DNA of 64,000 bases, taken from Candidatus Pacearchaeota archaeon. Its GTDB lineage: Archaea; Nanobdellota; Nanobdellia; Pacearchaeales; GW2011-AR1. The stretch is from contig JACPLR010000011.1 in NCBI GenBank assembly GCA_016186425.1, positions 13,206 to 77,205 of the forward strand. The letters run 5' to 3'. Positions 2,638 through 29,182 of this stretch are shown piece after piece; positions within the stretch are counted from its first letter, which is position 1; the number at the start of each line of letters is the position of its first letter. The notes under the pieces are model-generated. The model searched no databases and was not told the DNA's origin. It worked only from the letters and a program-made list of their open reading frames with translations. Position numbers and translations under genes: made by a program.

Positions 2638-3912
2638 ATGGAAAGAAGTTATATTGAAGAAGCTTTTAAGAAAAAAGGAAAAGTTTTGCTAAAAGGCTGG
2701 GTTCATGAAGTTAGAGACTTAAGCAAGATTAGGTTTATTATTCTTAGAGATATTACTGGCCAGATTCAGTTAGTTGGAGTGAAATCTGAAACAGGTGAAA
2801 AAGCTTTTGAGTTAATGAAAAGCTTGAACAGAGAAAGTGTTATTTCAGTTATAGGAGAGGTTAAGGATTCTAAACAGGCACCTGGTGGAAAAGAAGTTTT
2901 AATTGAGAAAATTGAGTTAATTGCCAAAGCAGAGCATCCTTTGCCAATTGATGTAAGTGATTTTTCGAAAACAGAACTGCCAAAAAGGCTAGATTACAGA
3001 TTTTTAGATTTGCACAGAAAGCAGACACAGGCTATTTTTAAGGTTCAGTCAACAATTCAACAAGCTTATATGGAATTTATGATTAATGAAGGAGCTGTAA
3101 TGGCTCAATTCCCTTCAATAATTGGAAGCAGCAGCGAGGGTGGAACTGATTTATTTAATGTTCAGTATTTTGAGAAAAAAGCGTGCTTGTCTCAAAGCTG
3201 TCAGTTGTATAAACAAATGCTGGCCTGTTCAATGGAAAAAGTTTTTGCAATATTCACAGTATGGAGAGCTGAAAAGCATAATACTGTAAGGCATTTGAAT
3301 GAATCAAGACAGTTTGATTATGAGCAGGCATTTGCAGATGATAAAGTTGTAATGGAAGTTTTAGGAAGATGTGTTCATTATATTGTTAAAAGAGTTATGG
3401 AATTAAATAAAAAAGAACTAGAGCTTTTAGAAGTTAAATTAAAAATTCCAACTACTAAGTATATTACTTTTGCACAGGTTTCCGAGATAATGAAAAAATA
3501 TAAGATTCATGTTGGAAAAGATGATCTTTCAGGAGAAGCTGAAGAAAAGCTTGGAGAGTTATATCCAGATACTATTGTTTTTGTTCATGACTGGCCTTTA
3601 AGCGGAAAGCCGTTTTATATAATGCCAAAAGGCAAGGATTTAAGTTACGGATTTGATGCAATTTACAAAGGAATGGAAATTTCATCAGGAGGGCAAAGAA
3701 TTCATCTTCCTGATTTATTAATTGAAAGACTTAAAGCCAAAGGACTTGATCCTAAACAATTTAAAGCTTATGTTGACAGTTTCAGATACGGAGCTCCAAT
3801 GCACGCTGGCTGGGGAGTTGGATTGGAAAGAATAACTATGTTAATTCTAGGATTGAAAAATATCAGAGAAGCTGTTTTATTCCCAAGAGACAGAGATAGA
3901 GTAAGCCCTTGA
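2638..3912 (+). CDS. aspS: Aspartyl-tRNA synthetase, archaeal/eukaryal type (class IIb)
   Basis: N-terminal OB anticodon-binding domain (LKGWVHEVRDLSKIRFIILRD). Class II motifs are present, including the flipping loop QSCQLYKQ (AspRS-like LYKQ rather than AsnRS) and motif 3 (GAPMHAGWGVGLERI). Length 424 aa. Confidence 0.85.
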   Translation: MERSYIEEAFKKKGKVLLKGWVHEVRDLSKIRFIILRDITGQIQLVGVKSETGEKAFELMKSLNRESVISVIGEVKDSKQAPGGKEVLIEKIELIAKAEHPLPIDVSDFSKTELPKRLDYRFLDLHRKQTQAIFKVQSTIQQAYMEFMINEGAVMAQFPSIIGSSSEGGTDLFNVQYFEKKACLSQSCQLYKQMLACSMEKVFAIFTVWRAEKHNTVRHLNESRQFDYEQAFADDKVVMEVLGRCVHYIVKRVMELNKKELELLEVKLKIPTTKYITFAQVSEIMKKYKIHVGKDDLSGEAEEKLGELYPDTIVFVHDWPLSGKPFYIMPKGKDLSYGFDAIYKGMEISSGGQRIHLPDLLIERLKAKGLDPKQFKAYVDSFRYGAPMHAGWGVGLERITMLILGLKNIREAVLFPRDRDRVSP

Positions 3913-3931: not shown

Positions 3932-4561
3932 TTATAAAATTCTTACTTTATATGGTTGTGTTCTTAATTCTTTCCAGCTTTTAAACCACATTGGTTTCTG
4001 AGGGATTTCATCACCCATTTTTATAAAAATTTCTCCTCTTGAAACTTTTTCTACATCTATTCCACGAATAATCATTGCATTTACCCATTCATCATTTACA
4101 GGAGTTAAGTGGTTGAAAGTAACATCTGGACCATAAGTTGTTTTAAGAGTTTCAACAAATTCGCTGTATGAATCCCATTTTGGATGGGGCCATACTCCAT
4201 TTGATAAACCGTAAAGTTCTTGCTTTTGTTTGAATCTTTTTTCAGCTTCGCTAAAATTAATTCCCTCTTCAATTCTAAATTGGTATTTCTCTAAATTTTT
4301 ATCCTGCAATATTTCATCAACTCTTTCTGGAGAGTCTAAAATTCTTATAAGGCATGCTGGATGATCTGTTCCAGCTTCATTTTTCTGCCTCCATTGAACA
4401 GCTCCCTCAAGCTTCATATTTATTGGTCCGCTTAGCCAAGTTCCAATATGCATGTAAGTGGTTGTTGCTTTCCAGGCATCAGTTAACCCTTCTTTGTCCC
4501 GCCTATATAATTTTCTTATATCATCTTTTACATTCTTATGCAGGTCGTAAATTTCTAACAT
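3932..4561 (-). CDS. Hypothetical protein (209 aa), W/H-rich, no family recognised
   Basis: Long clean ORF, compact spacing with neighbours. No motif I can assign. Confidence 0.45.
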   Translation of the reverse strand: MLEIYDLHKNVKDDIRKLYRRDKEGLTDAWKATTTYMHIGTWLSGPINMKLEGAVQWRQKNEAGTDHPACLIRILDSPERVDEILQDKNLEKYQFRIEEGINFSEAEKRFKQKQELYGLSNGVWPHPKWDSYSEFVETLKTTYGPDVTFNHLTPVNDEWVNAMIIRGIDVEKVSRGEIFIKMGDEIPQKPMWFKSWKELRTQPYKVRIL

Positions 4562-4708
4562 TTTAGCATTATACTTTAATAGTGCTGAAAACTCTTTTAT
4601 AAGATTTTATATGCTGTTTTTTCATGATTTTAGTTATTACTAAAAATTAATGAAGCTTGATTAAAGAGGTTTTTAAAAAACAGAAAGACTTAAATACACA
4701 TACATAGT

Positions 4709-4987
4709 ATGAGTATATGTATGGGAAGTGTAAATATTGCTGTAAAAAAAGAAGCTTATGAATTTCTTAAGTCTTTGAAATCAGATAGCAAGAGCTTTTC
4801 CGATGTTATTTTGGAATTTAAAGAAACTAAGGGAAACAAGGAAAATATTATGAAATTTTTTGGGGTCTTAAAAAATAACAAAATATCATTAAGTGAAGTA
4901 GAGAGGAATATGAAAAGATTTAGAAAAGATTTTGAAAAAAGGGTGAGACACACTGCATTAATAATGGAGAAAAATAGATTAAAATGA
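4709..4987 (+). CDS. vapB: VapB-like antitoxin (ribbon-helix-helix/SpoVT-type)
   Basis: The N-terminus (NIAVKKEAYEFLKSLK...SFSDVILEF) matches the archaeal VapB antitoxin pattern (I-V-E-Y--L--LK....SFSDVI). Its stop overlaps the PIN gene start (ATGA). Confidence 0.5.
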   Translation: MSICMGSVNIAVKKEAYEFLKSLKSDSKSFSDVILEFKETKGNKENIMKFFGVLKNNKISLSEVERNMKRFRKDFEKRVRHTALIMEKNRLK

Positions 4988-5376
4988 TTGGATTAGATAC
5001 AACCGCAATTATAGATCTTTTTAATGGTGATAAAAACCTTATATCTGTTTTAGAAAATATTAATGAACCTTTATCAACTACTATAATAAATTACCAAGAA
5101 ATTTTTTTTGGATTAAACATCTTTAATAGAGAGCATTTGGTAGAATATGCAAAATATGATGAATTTTTTAATAATTTGCTTGTTTTTCCTATCACAAAAC
5201 AATCTGCAAAAAAGGCCTCTTTGATTTTGTGGTCATTAAAAAAATTAGGACAAGAAATCGATAGGTTTGATTGTATGATTGCAGGAATATTTTTAGAGCA
5301 AGGGGTTAGTTCTGTTATAACAAGAAACACAAAACATTTTTCAGTTATCAAAGGTTTAAAGGTTGTTTCCTATTGA
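4984..5376 (+). CDS. vapC: PIN-domain ribonuclease toxin VapC
   Basis: Starts MIGLDTTAIIDLF (PIN Asp near N-terminus). A conserved acidic residue lies in DCMIAG and a C-terminal ITRNTKHF motif is present. Translationally coupled to the upstream antitoxin. Confidence 0.65.
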   Translation: MIGLDTTAIIDLFNGDKNLISVLENINEPLSTTIINYQEIFFGLNIFNREHLVEYAKYDEFFNNLLVFPITKQSAKKASLILWSLKKLGQEIDRFDCMIAGIFLEQGVSSVITRNTKHFSVIKGLKVVSY

Positions 5377-5436
5377 TTTTGTATATTTTCAATTATTTTA
5401 GAGAGGTTTTTAAAAGAATATTTCTTAATATATTAC

Positions 5437-6222
5437 ATGAAAATTTTAGCAATTGGTGATCCTCATGGAAGCATTCCTAAAAATTTGCCTAAAGATATAG
5501 ATTTAATTCTTTTAACAGGAGATATAGGAAAAGCAGACTTAGCTAGAAAAATGGCTTTTGAAAATATTGAGAGAAAAAAACAAGGGTTGCCTGAAGTTGA
5601 ATATTCTGCTATTCAAAAAAAAAGGGCTTTTATGGAAGAATATAATTCCTGTCTTTTTGTTGTTAGGTATTTATCTAAAATAGCTCCTGTTTATACTATT
5701 TATGGAAATGTGGAAAAGAATAATTATGAAGTAAGAAGGATAATGAAGGAAATAGGTATTAAATTGCCTTTTTTTACAAATGCTTTAAATTCAATTAGGA
5801 ATACGAGAGTTATTAATAATAAAGTTATAAAATTTAATGGATTAAGGATTGGTGGATTGGAATATTTTATTGATACTAATTGGGTTAGAGATTTTAAACC
5901 ATCTGAATATCGTGAAAGCCTGAAAGATGCTAAAAAAATGACGGAAAAAGCAAAGAGTATACTGGACTGGTTTAAAGAAGTAGATATTTTGGTTTGTCAT
6001 CAGCCACCTTATGGTATTTTAGATAAAGTAACTTTTAAATCTGCTCCAAAACATTGGATGGGAAAACATGCAGGAAGTGAAGCAATTTTAAAATATATTA
6101 AAAAATATCAGCCAGATTATGTGTTTTGCGGTCATATTCATGAAGGTGAAGGAATGAAAAGAATTGGTAAAACACAAGTGTATAATTTGGGTGTTGGCGG
6201 ATATAAAGTTATTAATCTATAA
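5437..6222 (+). CDS. Calcineurin-like metallophosphoesterase
   Basis: Motifs GDPHG (GDxHG), TGDIGK (GDxxD/R-like), YGNVE (GNHE-like) and CGHIHEG (GHxH). Confidence 0.7.
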   Translation: MKILAIGDPHGSIPKNLPKDIDLILLTGDIGKADLARKMAFENIERKKQGLPEVEYSAIQKKRAFMEEYNSCLFVVRYLSKIAPVYTIYGNVEKNNYEVRRIMKEIGIKLPFFTNALNSIRNTRVINNKVIKFNGLRIGGLEYFIDTNWVRDFKPSEYRESLKDAKKMTEKAKSILDWFKEVDILVCHQPPYGILDKVTFKSAPKHWMGKHAGSEAILKYIKKYQPDYVFCGHIHEGEGMKRIGKTQVYNLGVGGYKVINL

Positions 6223-6252
6223 CTTTATTAATTAGAAATAAATTATTCCATA

Positions 6253-6876
6253 ATGAAAATTATTCTTGAAATTGAAAGATTAATAAAGTCAAATGAATAT
6301 GTTATAAAAGATTACAAATTAATAGCTCTTTTTGGGAGTGTCTTAAAAGATAATAAATATGATGATATAGACTTAGTAACTATCGGAAATAATAAAAATC
6401 ATAATGTTTTTCTTAAAATTATAAAAGATTATTTTGAAACTAAAGGATTTAAGGTTATTTTCTTTAAAACAATTAAGAAAAAACCAGATGTAAAAGATAA
6501 AAAAGAGATGTTTATTCATGATTTACATTATCCAAACATTAATTATTTATTAGAAAAGGAATGGAAAAGTCCGATAATTCAAATTAAGTTACAATCAAGA
6601 GTGCTTTATGGATCTAAAAAAGGTATACCTTTGATTAAACTTAAAGAAAGAGATTTATATTACCCGTATTATGTGTGGTGTAAGGAAGTTAATAATAAAA
6701 TTAATTTTGACAGATTTCAAGATAATTTAATTAAGATTGTTCCGTTTTATTATAAAGAGTATTCTTATATAAGATTAAGCAATTTGGGATATACTCTATT
6801 AAAAATATTAAGAGGTCATAGTAACTGGCATGAAAAGAGAGATAGGATTATGAAGGTTTTCTTACAAAATCTATAG
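6253..6876 (+). CDS. Pol-beta superfamily nucleotidyltransferase domain protein
   Basis: ALFGSVLKDNKYDDIDLV gives the hG[GS] motif plus DxD, the signature of minimal nucleotidyltransferases. A C-terminal extension of unknown function follows. Confidence 0.55.
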   Translation: MKIILEIERLIKSNEYVIKDYKLIALFGSVLKDNKYDDIDLVTIGNNKNHNVFLKIIKDYFETKGFKVIFFKTIKKKPDVKDKKEMFIHDLHYPNINYLLEKEWKSPIIQIKLQSRVLYGSKKGIPLIKLKERDLYYPYYVWCKEVNNKINFDRFQDNLIKIVPFYYKEYSYIRLSNLGYTLLKILRGHSNWHEKRDRIMKVFLQNL

Positions 6877-6919
6877 ATTTTTAAACTTCTTCTTTTTTGA
6901 TTTAATATAGGATAATAAA

Positions 6920-7188
6920 ATGGCAAGTGAGTTAATGTGGCGAAGGGTTTCTGAAGCTGAGAAAAAGCAGATTGAAGAGAAAGCAAAGAGAATCATGCTT
7001 GATTTTGGCAAGACACTTGAAAAACTTCCAAAAGTTAAAGAAGCTGTTGTGGAAAGAGATGTTTTTATGAAAATATGAATTCTGATAGTGATAATAATAC
7101 TGATTTTAGAAAAATCATGTTTGATAATGCTCCAAACAAAGAAGGAGACTGCATTGTTGCTGAAAAAGGAAAATGGGTGGAGAAATAG
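6920..7188 (+). pseudogene. gatC: gatC (Asp/Glu-tRNA amidotransferase subunit C) interrupted by a frameshift in an A-run
   Basis: 6920..7078 encodes MASELMWRRVSEAEKKQIEEKAKRIMLDFGKTLEKLPKVKEAVVERDVFMKI*. A second frame, 7075..7188, encodes MNSDSDNNTDFRKIMFDNAPNKEGDCIVAEKGKWVEK*, which carries the GatC C-terminal NAP-x-K-(D/E)G motif. Adding one A in the run aaaa at 7070-7073 fuses both into a ~90-aa GatC. Confidence 0.5.
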
Positions 7189-7469
7189 GGAAAATGGAAA
7201 GAAGATTAACACAAGATGAATTATTGATGAAGTTTCTTGAATTAAGAAAAGATATCCAGATGCATTTATTGGAAAGTTATCTTCATCCAAGTAATTTAGC
7301 TGGAGAATTATATGTTGATGAAATGGATTATTCACAGAGACATAAATATCTTGAAAATAGAGAAAAAGAGTTAATAATAATTTGCGGGAGAAAGGCTGGA
7401 AAAAAGTATGATATAATGATGTTTGATAAGGCTATTAATTATGTTAAATTAGCTTTGAATTTAAAATGA
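7173..7469 (+). CDS. Small hypothetical protein, paralog 1 (shared F-ELR-DIQ--LLESYL-P motif)
   Basis: 98 aa. Shares LELRKDIQMHLLESYLHP with the next ORF. Overlaps the next gene by ATGA. Confidence 0.45.
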   Translation: MGGEIGKMERRLTQDELLMKFLELRKDIQMHLLESYLHPSNLAGELYVDEMDYSQRHKYLENREKELIIICGRKAGKKYDIMMFDKAINYVKLALNLK

Positions 7470-7720
7470 GCAGAAAAGTTATTTATTTGGATGATTTAAG
7501 ATCAAGATTTCAAGAGTTAAGACAGGATATTCAGGCTTATTTGCTGGAAAGTTATCTAGATCCAAAAAGCCTTGAAAGTGAAGAAAGAAAAGAAAAAGAT
7601 TTTCGGGAAAGAATAAAATTTTTTCATGTCCATCAAAACAGATTAACTGATATTTGTAAAAACGATCAAAAATCTTATAGCCAATCTGTAAATTATATTG
7701 CAGAGGTTTTAGGAGTTTAA
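7466..7720 (+). CDS. Small hypothetical protein, paralog 2
   Basis: 84 aa. Carries FQELRQDIQAYLLESYLDP, which is paralogous to 7173..7469. Confidence 0.45.
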   Translation: MSRKVIYLDDLRSRFQELRQDIQAYLLESYLDPKSLESEERKEKDFRERIKFFHVHQNRLTDICKNDQKSYSQSVNYIAEVLGV

Positions 7721-7834
7721 AAATAAGTTTAAAGAAAACAAAACTATAAAAAATTAAAATGATAAAAACAAATAAAATTTTAGAAGATAAGTATGAAAAA
7801 TTAAGTAAAGATATGGTAGAGATTCAAGAACCTT

Positions 7835-9211
7835 TTGAAAAATAAAATGAGCGTTATAGAAAAAATAAAGCAGATAAAAGCAGGGAAGATGACAGCTGAG
7901 CAAAACATAAAAGGATTTCTAAATGCAATTGAAAAAGACAATGGGAATGGCAGAAAAATAAATGCAGTGTTAAGTTTGAATCCTAATGCAGTTTCTGATG
8001 CAAGAAAAATTGATGAGAGAATAAGAAAAGGGCAGAAAGTTGGGAAGCTTGCAGGAGCTGGAATAATTGTTAAGGCAAATATTTGTGTTAAAAACCTTGA
8101 ATGTAATTGTGCCAGTTTAACATTAAAAGACTGGAAATCTCCTTATGATGCTAGTGTTATTCAGAAAATAAAAAAAGAAGATGGAATAATTATTGGAATT
8201 GCTAATATGGATGAGTTTGCTTGCGGAGGTAGTGGAGAAACCAGCGCTTTTGGTGTGACAAAAAACCCCCGCAACTTAACCTTGATTCCTGGAGGAACTT
8301 CAAGTGGAAGTGCAGCAAGTGTTGCAGCTGGTTTTTGTGATTTAGCTTTAGGAAGTGATACAGGGGGAAGTATTAGAAATCCGGCTTCACATTGCGGAGT
8401 TGTTGGATTGAAACCCAGTTATGGTGCTGTTTCCCGTTATGGATTAATTGACATGGCAATGAGTTTTGATCAAATTGGTCCTTTGGCAAGAGATATTGAA
8501 TCAGCTGCTTTATTATTTGATGTAATAAAAGGTTATGATGAGCATGACCCTACAACTTATAATGACGAGGAACATAATAAAGAAATAACTTTAGAGAAAA
8601 TTGGAAAGAAGATTATAATTGGAGTTATAAAACCATTGGCAAACAAGCAAGTTCAGAGTATTATTGATGATAAAATAAGTTTAATGTGTGAGAAGTTAGG
8701 ATGGAATAAAAAACAGATTGAAATAAAGTATATCGATGTTGCAGTTCAGACTTATTATCCAATTGTTTATGTTGAGTTTTTTTCAGGAACTAGAAAATTT
8801 GATGGAAGAAGATTTGGAAAAAAAATTGAAGATGTTGCAGGGCCTGAAGTTCTAAGAAGAATTTTAGGAGGAAGTGAGATTTCAAAGGCAGAGTATGAAG
8901 GAAGGTATTATAAAAAAGCATTAGAAGTCAAGCAGATTATTAAAGAAGAATTTGAAAATGCTTTTAAGAAAGTTGATTGCTTGATTGTTCCTACATGTCC
9001 GGGTTTGCCTTGGAAGATTGGAGAGTCAATGAGGGTTGAAGAAATTTATGCTTATGATGCTTTGACAATTCCTGCTAATTTGGCAGAAATCTGTTCTGTA
9101 ACAATTCCTGCAGGAATTGTTAGTGGAGTTCCTGTGGGCATGCAGGTAATGTGTGCTAAGGCAAATGAGGGAAAGATGCTGAGCATTGCGAGGGAGATTG
9201 AAAAATTATAA
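7835..9211 (+). CDS. gatA: Glutamyl/aspartyl-tRNA amidotransferase subunit A (amidase signature family)
   Basis: Amidase signature region GGTSSGSAASVAAGFCDLALGSDTGGSIRNPASHCGVVGLKPSYG including the Ser-cisSer-Lys triad. Length 458 aa. Lies downstream of the gatC remnant. Confidence 0.85.
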   Translation: MKNKMSVIEKIKQIKAGKMTAEQNIKGFLNAIEKDNGNGRKINAVLSLNPNAVSDARKIDERIRKGQKVGKLAGAGIIVKANICVKNLECNCASLTLKDWKSPYDASVIQKIKKEDGIIIGIANMDEFACGGSGETSAFGVTKNPRNLTLIPGGTSSGSAASVAAGFCDLALGSDTGGSIRNPASHCGVVGLKPSYGAVSRYGLIDMAMSFDQIGPLARDIESAALLFDVIKGYDEHDPTTYNDEEHNKEITLEKIGKKIIIGVIKPLANKQVQSIIDDKISLMCEKLGWNKKQIEIKYIDVAVQTYYPIVYVEFFSGTRKFDGRRFGKKIEDVAGPEVLRRILGGSEISKAEYEGRYYKKALEVKQIIKEEFENAFKKVDCLIVPTCPGLPWKIGESMRVEEIYAYDALTIPANLAEICSVTIPAGIVSGVPVGMQVMCAKANEGKMLSIAREIEKL

Positions 9212-9381
9212 ACTTCTAAAATTTAGTGTCCGTAGTCCAACTAAATTTTTTATATTTAATCTGAAAATGTAAGAAACTTAATCTTAAATAATATCAGGTT
9301 ACTTTAGATAAATTAGGTAGGGATATGGTATATTTTCAAAACATAATTAACTTTTTAAACAACATTTATTTTTCTATTATT

Positions 9382-10065
9382 ATGAAATCAATTCAAGTAA
9401 AAGATGTGAAGATAGAATGGCTTGGGCATTCTGGTTTCTTGATAACAAGCCAAGATGGAAAGAGAATTGCAATTGATCCTTTTAATATTAATTCTGGAAT
9501 TGATCCTGTTGATATGATTTTAATAACACATCCACATTATGATCATTGCAGTATAAAAGATATTCAGCTGCTAGTTAAAGAAGGAACAAGTGTTGTTGTG
9601 CCTATTGGAGCTCAAAGTAAAATAAACAAAATTGAAGGAATAAATATTCAACTTTCTCAGGTTGGCTTAAAGATGAAAGTTCAGGGAATTAATATTTATC
9701 CGTTTCCTGCTTATAATATAGACAAAGAATTTCATCCTAAAGAAGAGGACTGGATGGGTTATATGCTAAAGTTAAATGATGTGATTATTTATCATTCTGG
9801 TGATACTGATAATATTCCTGAAATGAATAATTTAGTTTATATTGCGCAGGAAGGAGAAGAAGTTGTTTTATTGCTTCCAGTTTCTGGAGTGTATGTAATG
9901 AATGCTAAAGAAGCTGTTAGCGTTGCAGAAATTATAAAGCCTGCTTTAGCAATTCCAATGCATTATGGTTCAGTTGCTGGAACAGAAGCTGATGCTAAAA
10001 AATTTGTAGAATTATGCAAGGAGAAAGGCATAAGAGCGGAAATTTTGGAAAAATTAAATGGCTGA
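9382..10065 (+). CDS. Metallo-beta-lactamase-fold metal-dependent hydrolase
   Basis: Starts from internal Met (MKSIQVKD...). Carries the HxHxDH motif (ITHPHYDHCS) and a later HYG motif typical of MBL-fold hydrolases. Confidence 0.7.
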   Translation: MKSIQVKDVKIEWLGHSGFLITSQDGKRIAIDPFNINSGIDPVDMILITHPHYDHCSIKDIQLLVKEGTSVVVPIGAQSKINKIEGINIQLSQVGLKMKVQGINIYPFPAYNIDKEFHPKEEDWMGYMLKLNDVIIYHSGDTDNIPEMNNLVYIAQEGEEVVLLLPVSGVYVMNAKEAVSVAEIIKPALAIPMHYGSVAGTEADAKKFVELCKEKGIRAEILEKLNG

Positions 10066-10393
10066 AAATAGGTTTAGAGAAAATCTTAATGAATATGCGA
10101 TAAATTTTCTTTTTGCGGGCATTTTGTATGCTGCTTTTTTTAGTTTTGTATTTCCAAAAATTATGAATGGCATGATTAATTACGGATATGAAATTTTTCC
10201 TGAAGTAAAAGCTCATAAAATTGCTGAAGATGGGAGAAAAGAAGAGGAGGTCAATAGAAAAAAGGTTAATGAGCTTGAGGATATTCTTACTTCTATGGCT
10301 GAGTTAGATTTGGAAAGGAATTTAGGCATTTTATCAGAGAAATCTAGAGAAGAATATGCAAAATTGCACAAAGAACTTGAATTTTATAAATAA
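10058..10393 (+). CDS. Small membrane protein with C-terminal coiled-coil/charged region
   Basis: An N-terminal hydrophobic segment (INFLFAGILYAAFFSFVF) is followed by a charged tail. Overlaps the upstream gene end by 8 nt. Confidence 0.35.
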   Translation: MAENRFRENLNEYAINFLFAGILYAAFFSFVFPKIMNGMINYGYEIFPEVKAHKIAEDGRKEEEVNRKKVNELEDILTSMAELDLERNLGILSEKSREEYAKLHKELEFYK

Positions 10394-10853
10394 AATTAAT
10401 TAGTATTTATGTTTTATGAGAACAAGAAAATATATAAATAGTACTAGTCAAATAATAAAATGTTAGAAACATATTCAATTAATGAGTTAATTAGACAAAC
10501 ACTTGACCCGGGTTTTTATGCAGTTCATAATGAAGACATCTTTTTTTCTAGTTCCAGGCAAGAGTTGTCCAGTTTTTTAGATAGTATTGGGTGTAAATCT
10601 GAAATAAAACCCAATGATGATGGATATCATCCAACATATCGTGATGATGATATTCTTACTGAAGAGCATATTGGTAAAAGAGTTTGCTAAATTTCGTTAA
10701 TTTTCTGTTAAAATTCTATATTTTCCATAAGAATAAAATGAACCCTTTTAAAAACGGTTCCCAAAACCTATATTTCTTACAAGAATAAAATATATAAACA
10801 AGCAATTTGTTGCTTTTGTTAATATTGATTGAAAGGAGGTTAAATAAAAAGAG

Positions 10854-27841: not shown

Positions 27842-29182
27842 CTAGTAAATAATCTTCGGGCCATAGCCCCAAAGCCTGACAGCTGCAGCTAATTCTGAGT
27901 TAGGATTTTGAGAGACAAATTTCCTTAAAGGAATTTTTTTTGCGTGAATATCTCGCGCTTGCTCAATTGCTTTTACACCTGCCTCAATTCCCCGAGGATG
28001 GCCAAGCAAACCGCCACCAAACTGAAGAATTACATCTTCTCCAAGTTCATCTAAGACATTTTCAATATCTCCAGGATGCAAACCTCCTGAAGCAACCATC
28101 CAAACCGGTTTTATATGATGCCAGTTTTGTCCAAGGGAAGGAATTTGCAAATTTGGTTTTGTTATTTTTTCCTGAAGAATATCTCTAATATATTTTGCTT
28201 CCCCATAATCTTCCATTTTTGCTAAAGGAGAACCTCCATGCATATTATCCACGCCTAGCAACCGATATAATTTTGCAAGAGCTATCATTGAAATTGAAAA
28301 TCCGTAAAGTTTTCCTTTTCCATGCACTCCAGGACTATTATCTCTTGTCATAAAACCGTGCATTGCTCTGTGGGCATGAATTGCCAAGCCTGTATTCATT
28401 CTTCTAAAAGTATCGATTGCTGCAAATCCTGTTGTTACAACATCAATCATGCAATAAACTCCTTTATTCTTCTTTATTACTTCAGCATGTTTTTTCATTA
28501 TCTCCATATTTGAATGAGTTATATTTGCCAAATAGAATTTTTTCCTTCCGGTAAGCTTTTCAGCTTCTCTTGCTTCTTTTAAAACAAGGGAAACTCGCTT
28601 ATCAAAATGATTGAAAGATAAATTTGTTAGGTTTTCATCATCTTTAATTCCATCATAAGTTCCATTCCCGGAAGTGAATAATATTCTTGCCAGTTTTGCC
28701 TGTTCAATGTCTGTTCTGCCTATTTTTGGTTTTGGAACAGTTGCAACTAGCGGACCACGAGGTTTTTTTAATATTTTTCTAATTCCTTCAACCCCAAAAG
28801 CAGGGCCTGGAAATTTTGCAATCATTGCTTTTGGGAATTTAATATCATAAATTCTTAAACCAGAAAGCATTTTCATCCCAGCTATATTTCCAGCAATTCC
28901 AGCTAATAATCCGGAAATATTATCTAACTCAAATAACTCAATTGGATAAGCAATTTTAAACATAAAATTCTCAGAATCTAGATCGTAAGCCAGCGCTTTT
29001 TTTCTAAGCGCTAGAGGAATTCCAGAATCCTTTCCATCGTAGACTTTTGTCCATGTTCCTGTTGATGATTCAGCTGCAATAGTTCCTGCAGCTTCTTCGA
29101 AAAGCTGTTTAGAATTTTTACCTGCTTTTTTTGCTTCAGTTATTGCAGACTCGCTTAATTCTGCTTTTAAGAGAGTTATCAC
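27842..29182 (-). CDS. rbcL: Ribulose-1,5-bisphosphate carboxylase large-subunit homolog (form III / II-III archaeal type)
   Basis: RuBisCO landmarks include KPKIG (KPKLG), GIKDDEN (carbamyl-Lys region, cf. FTKDDEN), HAHRAMHG (HIHRAMH) and GGGLLGHPRG (GGGTLGHPWG). The MHGG...LAK region aligns to HAGT...GK. Length 446 aa. Confidence 0.8.
   Translation of the reverse strand: MITLLKAELSESAITEAKKAGKNSKQLFEEAAGTIAAESSTGTWTKVYDGKDSGIPLALRKKALAYDLDSENFMFKIAYPIELFELDNISGLLAGIAGNIAGMKMLSGLRIYDIKFPKAMIAKFPGPAFGVEGIRKILKKPRGPLVATVPKPKIGRTDIEQAKLARILFTSGNGTYDGIKDDENLTNLSFNHFDKRVSLVLKEAREAEKLTGRKKFYLANITHSNMEIMKKHAEVIKKNKGVYCMIDVVTTGFAAIDTFRRMNTGLAIHAHRAMHGFMTRDNSPGVHGKGKLYGFSISMIALAKLYRLLGVDNMHGGSPLAKMEDYGEAKYIRDILQEKITKPNLQIPSLGQNWHHIKPVWMVASGGLHPGDIENVLDELGEDVILQFGGGLLGHPRGIEAGVKAIEQARDIHAKKIPLRKFVSQNPNSELAAAVRLWGYGPKIIY

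Follow-up and report, generated by a model that had tools for sequence, protein, structure and literature searches.

The gatC-gatA locus described here lies in a 64,000-nucleotide (nt) stretch of DNA, the window, whose positions are used throughout and which belongs to a metagenome-assembled genome (MAG) of a Candidatus Pacearchaeota archaeon (GCA_016186425.1, contig JACPLR010000011.1, 13,206-77,205 of the forward strand). The gene content of the window is archaeal, with genes for aspartyl-tRNA synthetase (AspRS), FtsZ, family B DNA polymerase, the RuBisCO large subunit, and an archaeal-type phenylalanyl-tRNA synthetase (PheRS). At the locus itself, a gatC gene broken into two open reading frames (ORFs) is followed by two small genes, named X1 and X2 here, and by gatA, whereas the AspRS gene, aspS, is the upstream member of a conserved aspS ... 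gatC ... gatA neighbourhood (Table 1). The four ORFs that precede gatA were found as an earlier sequence-only reading of this DNA had listed them, and its statement that gatA and aspS are intact was borne out by their Pfam matches. The product of gatA is annotated as GatA by NCBI and scored 480.2 bits against TIGR00132, which has a cut-off of 481.1; the TTG at 7835 is merely the first possible start of this gene, and the start at 7847 was taken.

Table 1. Features of the gatC-gatA locus and the aspS gene in window coordinates (aa, amino acids; HMM, hidden Markov model).
Feature	Position	Strand	Description
aspS (AspRS gene)	2638-3912	+	424 aa; Pfam tRNA-synt_2 E 3e-66 and OB anticodon-binding domain
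gatC 5' fragment	6920-7078	+	52-codon ORF: 50 native codons, 2 out-of-frame codons, stop
Deletion junction	7069-7070	+	19 nt of the siblings, AGAGAAGAAAGTGAAGTAA, missing (equivalent: string shifted by one A)
gatC 3' fragment	7075-7188	+	37 codons, shifted frame; C-terminal NAP...IVAEKGKW motif
X1	7173-7469	+	98 aa from the first ATG (7173, inside gatC); family HMM E 6e-30
X2	7466-7720	+	84 aa, second tandem copy; NCBI HYW74_02440; family HMM E 2e-26
28-codon ORF	7759-7845	+	Ends right at the gatA start; weak N-terminal X-motif match
gatA	7847-9211	+	454 aa, intact; Pfam Amidase E 4e-111; TIGR00132 E 6.5e-144

The gatC Gene Is Broken by a 19-nt Deletion

The window was compared with Logan assemblies of four SRA runs, each assembled independently and representing essentially the same strain; they were located through the contigs of intact homologs of the GatC-like protein and of the neighbouring small gene. 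The accession series and the organism name suggest that these runs and the MAG stem from the groundwater project of PMC7906910. Sibling contigs L007 (SRR12113430; 6297 nt against window positions 4192-10469) and L003 (SRR12113383; 1001 nt compared) showed no mismatches, L008 (SRR12113422; 1015 nt) showed a single one, and L009 (SRR12113424; 4821 nt) presented four. Each of the four alignments contained one gap, of 19 nt. In the siblings, the block AGAGAAGAAAGTGAAGTAA is placed after the ATG at 7067-7069, whereas the window reads TTTATG followed directly, across the deletion point, by AAAATATG. With the block present, gatC is a continuous gene of 95 codons; in the window, codons 51 to 56 (R-E-E-S-E-V) and one further base are lost, and the frame is shifted. 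Residues 1-50 of the intact L007 protein (95 aa) agree fully with the 5' fragment and residues 59-95 with the 3' fragment, and the two frames are open simultaneously only along ~7039-7078.

The homologs of the fused protein are intact, 88-94 aa long and 60-93% identical to it, and the gene is continuous in every relative, with 85-95 codons. The same split, which was looked for in homologous genomes, was thus found in none of them, and a single continuous ORF of ~75-100 codons is absent only from the window, where gatC consists of 52 plus 37 codons in two frames. As the 19-nt segment is present in all the more distant relatives, the intact gatC is the ancestral form and the window carries a deletion. 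The 52-aa fragment was met only in the NCBI record, where it is annotated as hypothetical protein HYW74_02430 (MBI2628913.1) on an 83-kb contig, and exact look-ups of the 52-aa and 37-aa products returned no other contig in a large collection. The gatC break is, therefore, a deletion of 19 bp that only this deposited assembly carries.

In an alignment of 12 GatC-like sequences from different lineages, Arg51 and Glu53 were invariant (12/12), and both are deleted from the window copy. The deletion allele as written is null, because six codons including the invariant Arg51-Glu-Glu53 are lost and the frame is shifted. In bacterial GatC, an invariant Arg-x-Asp (R64/D66 in Staphylococcus aureus) contacts GatB (PMC4027206); from their position after the helical part of the protein, R51 and E53 would correspond to these two residues.

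Identity of the Broken Gene

The proposal that the two pieces reconstruct a GatC-like protein held when the alignment to GatC profiles was carried out. Adding one A to the run at 7070-7073 gives a continuous frame of 89 aa, and this fusion aligned from end to end with both archaeal GatC profiles, covering positions 5-77 of the 78 in NF000681 (E 6e-9) and 2-72 of the 73 in TIGR01827 (E 2e-8), while the 37-aa piece alone matched the C-terminal part of both profiles (E 4e-6 and E 3e-5, respectively). Across the GatC-like proteins scored, the matches covered the full profiles with E 1e-8 to 1e-14. In bits against NF000681 and TIGR01827, the window fusion reached 35.8 and 34.2, the intact sibling 35.2 and 32.3, and relatives up to 51.3 and 51.1. 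In addition, both the window and ~50 DPANN loci found with the GatC profile have the gene upstream of gatA and on its strand.

Several results limit the assignment. No GatC-like sequence tested reached the curated cut-offs of the two profiles (64 and 52.1 bits), and a Pfam scan gave no GatC match (PF02686) for the fused, the split, or the intact protein. Searches of PDB sequences with phmmer, using the intact protein, and with the 12-sequence profile recovered no GatC chain, the best matches being coiled-coil nucleoporins. Profile alignment with hhalign to S. aureus GatC gave E 0.096 over 25 helical columns only. Finally, the AlphaFold2 (AF2) monomer model of the GatC-like protein had a predicted local distance difference test (pLDDT) score of 64, being confident for the N-terminal helix and disordered beyond it, and this low-confidence model had no Foldseek match in the PDB. 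Given the sub-cut-off profile scores and the missing Pfam match, the window protein is called divergent, and by its profile matches the pair of fragments together represents a divergent archaeal GatC-like protein.

The closest known proteins are the archaeal short-form GatC proteins (NF000681; TIGR01827, gatC_rel), with which the window lineage shares a length of 85-95 aa, alignment over the full profile, the C-terminal NAP...I-[VI]-AEKGKW motif, a position directly upstream of gatA on the same strand, and an N-terminal helix beyond which the chain is extended and poorly ordered. It differs from them in an N-terminal extension of ~15 residues (MASELLWRRLSE...) and, in the window itself, in the 19-nt deletion that takes out the invariant R-E-E. 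With bacterial GatC (S. aureus, PDB 3IP4; PMC4027206), it has in common that it is a non-catalytic peptide encoded with gatA and carries an invariant Arg-x-acidic motif after the helical part, but there is no significant direct sequence match to the solved bacterial chains.

Origin of the Break

The sequence-only reading had offered a homopolymer error, a slippery-site programmed frameshift, and a genuine pseudogenisation as causes of the split. It was right that one extra A restores a single frame, and the loss of one A from the run at 7070-7073, with the 89-codon fusion as the true gene, would also agree with a product that matches GatC profiles across the junction. Nevertheless, a homopolymer length error fails as the cause because the four siblings, otherwise identical or differing at 1-4 bases, are separated from the window by one indel of 19 nt and not of 1. 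Moreover, the 89-aa fusion lacks R51 and E53, and this explanation would call for two independent events at one site, an in-frame deletion of 18 nt and an error of 1 nt, all of which makes it very improbable. Programmed ribosomal frameshifting, or another form of recoding that joins the two ORFs, could be read from their overlap beside an A-rich stretch (U UUU AUG AAA AUA UGA), but it was excluded, with a residual chance that we put lower still, because no relative at any distance has a frameshift, all of them having one continuous ORF, and because the frameshifted product would still miss the invariant R-x-E motif. A continuous gene is, besides, present in the same strain, and a Rfam scan of the whole window gave 0 families at the gathering threshold, neither a recoding element nor, consequently, any tRNA, rRNA, or other known RNA gene.

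Pseudogenisation was weakened by the comparison, and what remains of it is a deletion allele. In such a genuine loss of function, gatC would be dead in the organism or in the assembled sub-population, either as a minority deletion allele or with the loss tolerated through another route to Asn-tRNA. The deletion is present in the deposited sequence, a 19-nt deletion with 1-nt microhomology is plausible as a product of replication or repair, and the population shows strain-level variation (1 base in L008 and 4 in L009, three of these clustered in X1). On the other hand, all four other assemblies of the same strain are intact, neither fragment is on record on another contig, GatC is required for the stability of GatA in the systems studied (PMC4027206), the downstream gatA is intact with no sign of decay, and no second class IIb synthetase, that is, no asparaginyl-tRNA synthetase (AsnRS), was found in a search that covers the 64-kb window. 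We give a genuine loss somewhat less than an even chance.

The break would thus have arisen through a local assembly or scaffolding error or through a minority deletion allele in the assembled sample, two origins that seem roughly balanced, with the artefact slightly favoured. Against the artefact, a 19-nt deletion with 1-nt microhomology is atypical as an error of a de Bruijn (k-mer) graph, and the deposited record is itself one observation of the deletion allele. Under either origin, the same strain has a functional-looking gatC. As deposited, the genome would score as GatC-less, with a fragment named only as a hypothetical protein, and it might wrongly be concluded that this DPANN archaeon is unable to make Asn-tRNA by transamidation. 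In view of the four assemblies with an intact gene, metabolic reconstructions should not count gatC as lost without a check of the reads; beyond this caution for annotation, the break is of low interest.

The X Family

The two small genes had been described as paralogs without annotation, and the comparison agreed: X1 and X2 matched in BLASTP with E 5e-14 and 36% identity over 83 residues, and their DNA shares a core of 58 nt at 76% identity (7233-7290 vs 7508-7565). The start of X2 overlaps the stop of X1 (ATGA). For X1, the likely start is the ATG at 7194, giving a protein of 91 aa (7194-7469), because the alignments put Met8 at the N-terminus of the family. Judging from these alignments, X1 and X2 are tandem duplicates within one family, X.

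Word-indexed searches for homologs of X returned nearly only self matches. An exhaustive HMMER scan of 1.84 billion cluster representatives (E<=1e-3) yielded 14 matches, 12 of them small proteins of 81-111 aa that include both query copies, and of two metagenome scans the first gave 0 loci and the second one locus. The members share the motifs F-x-x-L-R-x-D-[IV]-x-x-Y-L-x-E, H-x-H-K-x-x-L-x-x-I-C-G, and Y-D-x-x-M-F-D-K-A-x-x-Y-L, and their isoelectric points (pI) range from 4.6 to 9.6. The AF2 model of X1 is all-helical, with a pLDDT of 86. No match to X was obtained in Pfam, NCBIfam, or PDB sequences (including a profile search of the latter), nor for its AF2 model in the PDB and BFVD with Foldseek, and profile-profile comparison showed it to be unrelated to the GatC-like proteins. 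By these searches, X is a rare family without annotation, whose proteins are all-helical in the AF2 model and about 85-110 aa long.

The 28-codon ORF between X2 and gatA shares with X1 a 16-nt repeat at 94% identity (7799-7814 vs 7240-7255), and the 10-mer TAAAATGAGC occurs both at the X1/X2 junction and at the junction of this ORF with gatA. Against positions 7-22 of the X HMM, the ORF scored 5.2 bits, a score equalled by 8 of 1000 shuffles. It may, on this slight evidence, be the decayed N-terminal stump of a third X copy.

Sibling L009 differs from the window at four bases over 4.8 kb, and three of these lie in an 18-nt segment of X1 (window positions 7405, 7413, and 7422). All three alter amino acids (K to R, I to V, and F to L) in the conserved Y-D-x-x-M-F-D-K motif, and this clustering suggests relaxed constraint or a small conversion tract.

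The gatC-gatA Spacer

The synteny of the small-gene family was followed in the ten lineages in which the context is visible, and in all of them X lies in the gatC-gatA spacer, in nine directly behind gatC. The order is gatC-X-gatA in L010, L011, L015, L020, and L048; Metallophos-gatC-X in L083, where the contig ends; gatC-X-77aa-56aa-gatA in L012/L013; gatC-X-chorismate mutase (CM_2)-gatA in L014; gatC-81aa-NUDIX-X(divergent)-82aa-gatA in L004; and gatC-X1-X2-gatA in the window lineage. In nine lineages out of ten, the start of X falls at or within the last gatC codons, typically as an ATGA in which stop and start overlap. Outside gatC-gatA loci, no X was found among the 8968 ORFs of 83 loci and the 64-kb window. 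Of the two extra ORFs in L012/L013, that of 77 aa probably represents a divergent second copy of X, and that of 56 aa a NUDIX remnant. Together with the tandem pair of the window and the possible stump at 7759-7845, this probable second copy indicates that X has repeatedly been duplicated locally and has decayed.

The X lineages reach as far as GatA proteins only 55-57% identical to that of the window, and their distribution is patchy. When GTDB species representatives were scanned with the GatC-like profile, 67 loci were returned, mostly from MAGs of Pacearchaeota, Woesearchaeota, and Nanoarchaeota, with 10 from Methanobacteriaceae-type methanogens; X is absent from 65 of them, and from 55 of the 57 DPANN loci. 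It is also absent from L001 and L002, whose GatA is 89% identical to that of the window. Among relatives with long contigs, L001 is the closest (GatA 89%, AspRS 94% identical), and it carries a GNAT gene in place of X. In a tree of GatA, the X lineages are scattered over at least two clades among lineages without X.

X is not the only occupant of this spacer. Among ~50 DPANN loci of the scan with gatA downstream, gatC and gatA were adjacent in ~15, separated by 215-480 nt in ~20, and separated by 0.7-2.3 kb in ~15. Of all the loci examined from Pacearchaeota, Woesearchaeota, and Nanoarchaeota, about three quarters have an occupied spacer. In L016-L072 (gatC at ~4001-4270 in most), L001, and L004, as well as L014, a NUDIX hydrolase was the recurrent cargo (L004, L017, L018, L019, L038, L041, L055, and L063). 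In addition, the spacer held a GNAT acetyltransferase (L001, L016), a UMPH-1-type 5'-nucleotidase (L026, with similar genes in L032 and L039), a HIT protein (L031), an amidohydrolase (Amidohydro_2; L030), a chorismate mutase (CM_2; L014, L051), and several unannotated ORFs. Several of these types are nucleotide house-cleaning enzymes. Most cargo genes begin inside the last gatC codons and overlap it as X does. With such diverse cargo and a like overlap, an occupied spacer is the normal state in these archaea, and X shares its coupling to gatC with other cargo; the sequence-only reading, which took the small genes for an unusual insertion into a gatCA unit, has to be corrected in this respect.

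X resembles lineage-specific cargo of variable operon slots in its fixed place between two housekeeping genes, where content differs from lineage to lineage, as well as in its remnants, its tandem duplicates, and its weak purifying selection. It differs from typical cargo in being old, first in the slot, and more stable, as it is present in lineages whose GatA is only 55-57% identical to that of the window. In Pacearchaeota, Woesearchaeota, and Nanoarchaeota, the junction of gatC and gatA is thus a recurrent cargo slot, and X has kept its place behind gatC over a long divergence.

Two other spacer ORFs, of 81 aa in L004 (1630-1875) and of 92 aa in L070 (4180-4458), share an N-terminal E-E-P-L-S-K-x-W motif and may, by eye, form a second small family in the slot.

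Possible Role of X

The explanation that we regard as probable for the locus as a whole joins a gatC deletion private to this assembly with X as an old passenger family of the gatC-gatA slot. X would have been inherited over the long term inside the spacer of Pacearchaeota-type archaea, and the spacer would act as a permissive expression slot that holds different cargo in different lineages. Because the slot genes start at or within the last gatC codons, typically with ATGA, they would share a transcript with gatC and be translated in coordination with it. As to what X itself does, the likeliest reading, to which we give close to an even chance, is that it is an old, dispensable, weakly constrained, non-catalytic, and co-expressed passenger of the slot. 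For the same genome pairs, the ratio of nonsynonymous to synonymous substitution rates (dN/dS) was 0.51-0.68 for X and 0.13-0.23 for GatC, rough values from AT-rich and partly saturated sequence; by these estimates, X evolves faster than GatC. Three observations speak against a mere passenger. X stays directly behind gatC across the GatA divergence given above even though the slot turns over often, and no member was ever met elsewhere; this is the pattern expected of a functional partner. A dN/dS below 1 means, in addition, that the protein is maintained.

The sequence-only reading had left the choice between an accessory factor of the amidotransferase and an unrelated insertion. A purely accidental insertion does not agree with the finding that every X seen lies in the gatC-gatA spacer, and the accessory alternative is possible but doubtful. 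X might be a lineage-specific, non-essential accessory or scaffolding subunit of GatCAB or of an AspRS-GatCAB transamidosome, made in step with GatC and acting as a free-standing counterpart of the N-terminal extension of GatF that braces GatA. The precedent is fungal mitochondrial GatF, which consists of a GatC-like part and an N-terminal domain that scaffolds GatA (PMC4027206), and it is the only known analogue of an extra small, non-catalytic element tied to the function of GatC. However, GatF is one polypeptide and X a separate gene without detected similarity to the GatC-like proteins, and GatF is functionally important in yeast, whereas X is missing from close relatives. The exclusive position of X, with the start overlap in most lineages, and its persistence at low GatA identity would favour such a partner, and the confidently predicted helical model with conserved surface motifs would suit a binding module. 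X does not, however, co-occur with the amidotransferase throughout the lineage, being absent from L001 and from most GatC-bearing DPANN genomes. Furthermore, unrelated enzymes occupy the slot with the same start overlap, the dN/dS of X is two to four times that of GatC, the pI varies from 4.6 to 9.6, and X has no similarity in sequence or fold to any amidotransferase-related domain.

In the strongest form of this alternative, which we consider unlikely, at roughly three chances in ten, some of the Pacearchaeota would have in X a fourth, hitherto unrecognised part of the machinery of the archaeal Asp-tRNA(Asn) amidotransferase. As a helical protein translationally coupled to GatC, it might brace GatA or bridge GatCAB to AspRS as a transamidosome adaptor, though this too is doubtful; and its duplication in the window lineage and its loss where other solutions evolved would, with the same reserve, belong to that history. 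Should X bind the amidotransferase, no additional subunit of an archaeal GatCAB would have been known before it, and it would allow tests of how reduced genomes patch an unstable enzyme; should it not, X would illustrate cleanly how an orphan gene survives by riding along in a housekeeping operon. The X family and its slot are otherwise a modest finding of comparative genomics, of real interest only given a demonstrated interaction with GatCAB.

Neighbouring Genes and Related Contigs

The AspRS of the window is 94% identical to that of L001, and its order relative to gatC is the same. L001 has the order AspRS-Metallophos-gatC, and the window lineage has extra genes at 4709-5376 and 6253-6876. 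The former region holds a VapB/VapC (PIN) toxin-antitoxin pair between the genes for AspRS and the metallophosphoesterase, and the latter, which separates the metallophosphoesterase gene from gatC, a 207-aa ORF that matches Polbeta nucleotidyltransferase only faintly (E 0.006). The gatB, gatD, and gatE genes of L001 have no counterparts in the 64-kb window. Two other candidates were discarded: the overlapping minus-strand ORFs at 1060-2540, considered as a second frameshift, were read as two adjacent genes, and a 154-codon antisense ORF at 6871-7335 was attributed to the purine-rich coding of the plus strand and set aside. The RuBisCO large-subunit gene lies at 27842-29182 on the minus strand.

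One further contig, L034 (DATJPO010000050.1), is labelled 'Candidatus Omnitrophota bacterium' and carries a Pacearchaeota-type gatC-gatA with a GatA 56.5% identical to that of the window; it may be mis-binned. In L001 (1508-6707; Pacearchaeota MAG GCA_041643095.1), a gene for a cyclodipeptide synthase (CDPS) directly follows that of a 486-aa GatB_N-domain protein, near GatD. As CDPSs take aminoacyl-tRNAs as substrates, this clustering with genes of a tRNA-dependent amidotransferase is curious. The pairing of GatD with the 486-aa GatB_N protein resembles that of the distant, X-bearing L010 (1-4524), which encodes two GatB_N-domain proteins, one of 479 aa with a YqeY domain and one of 482 aa without it beside GatD, the latter of which may be a shortened GatE-like subunit.

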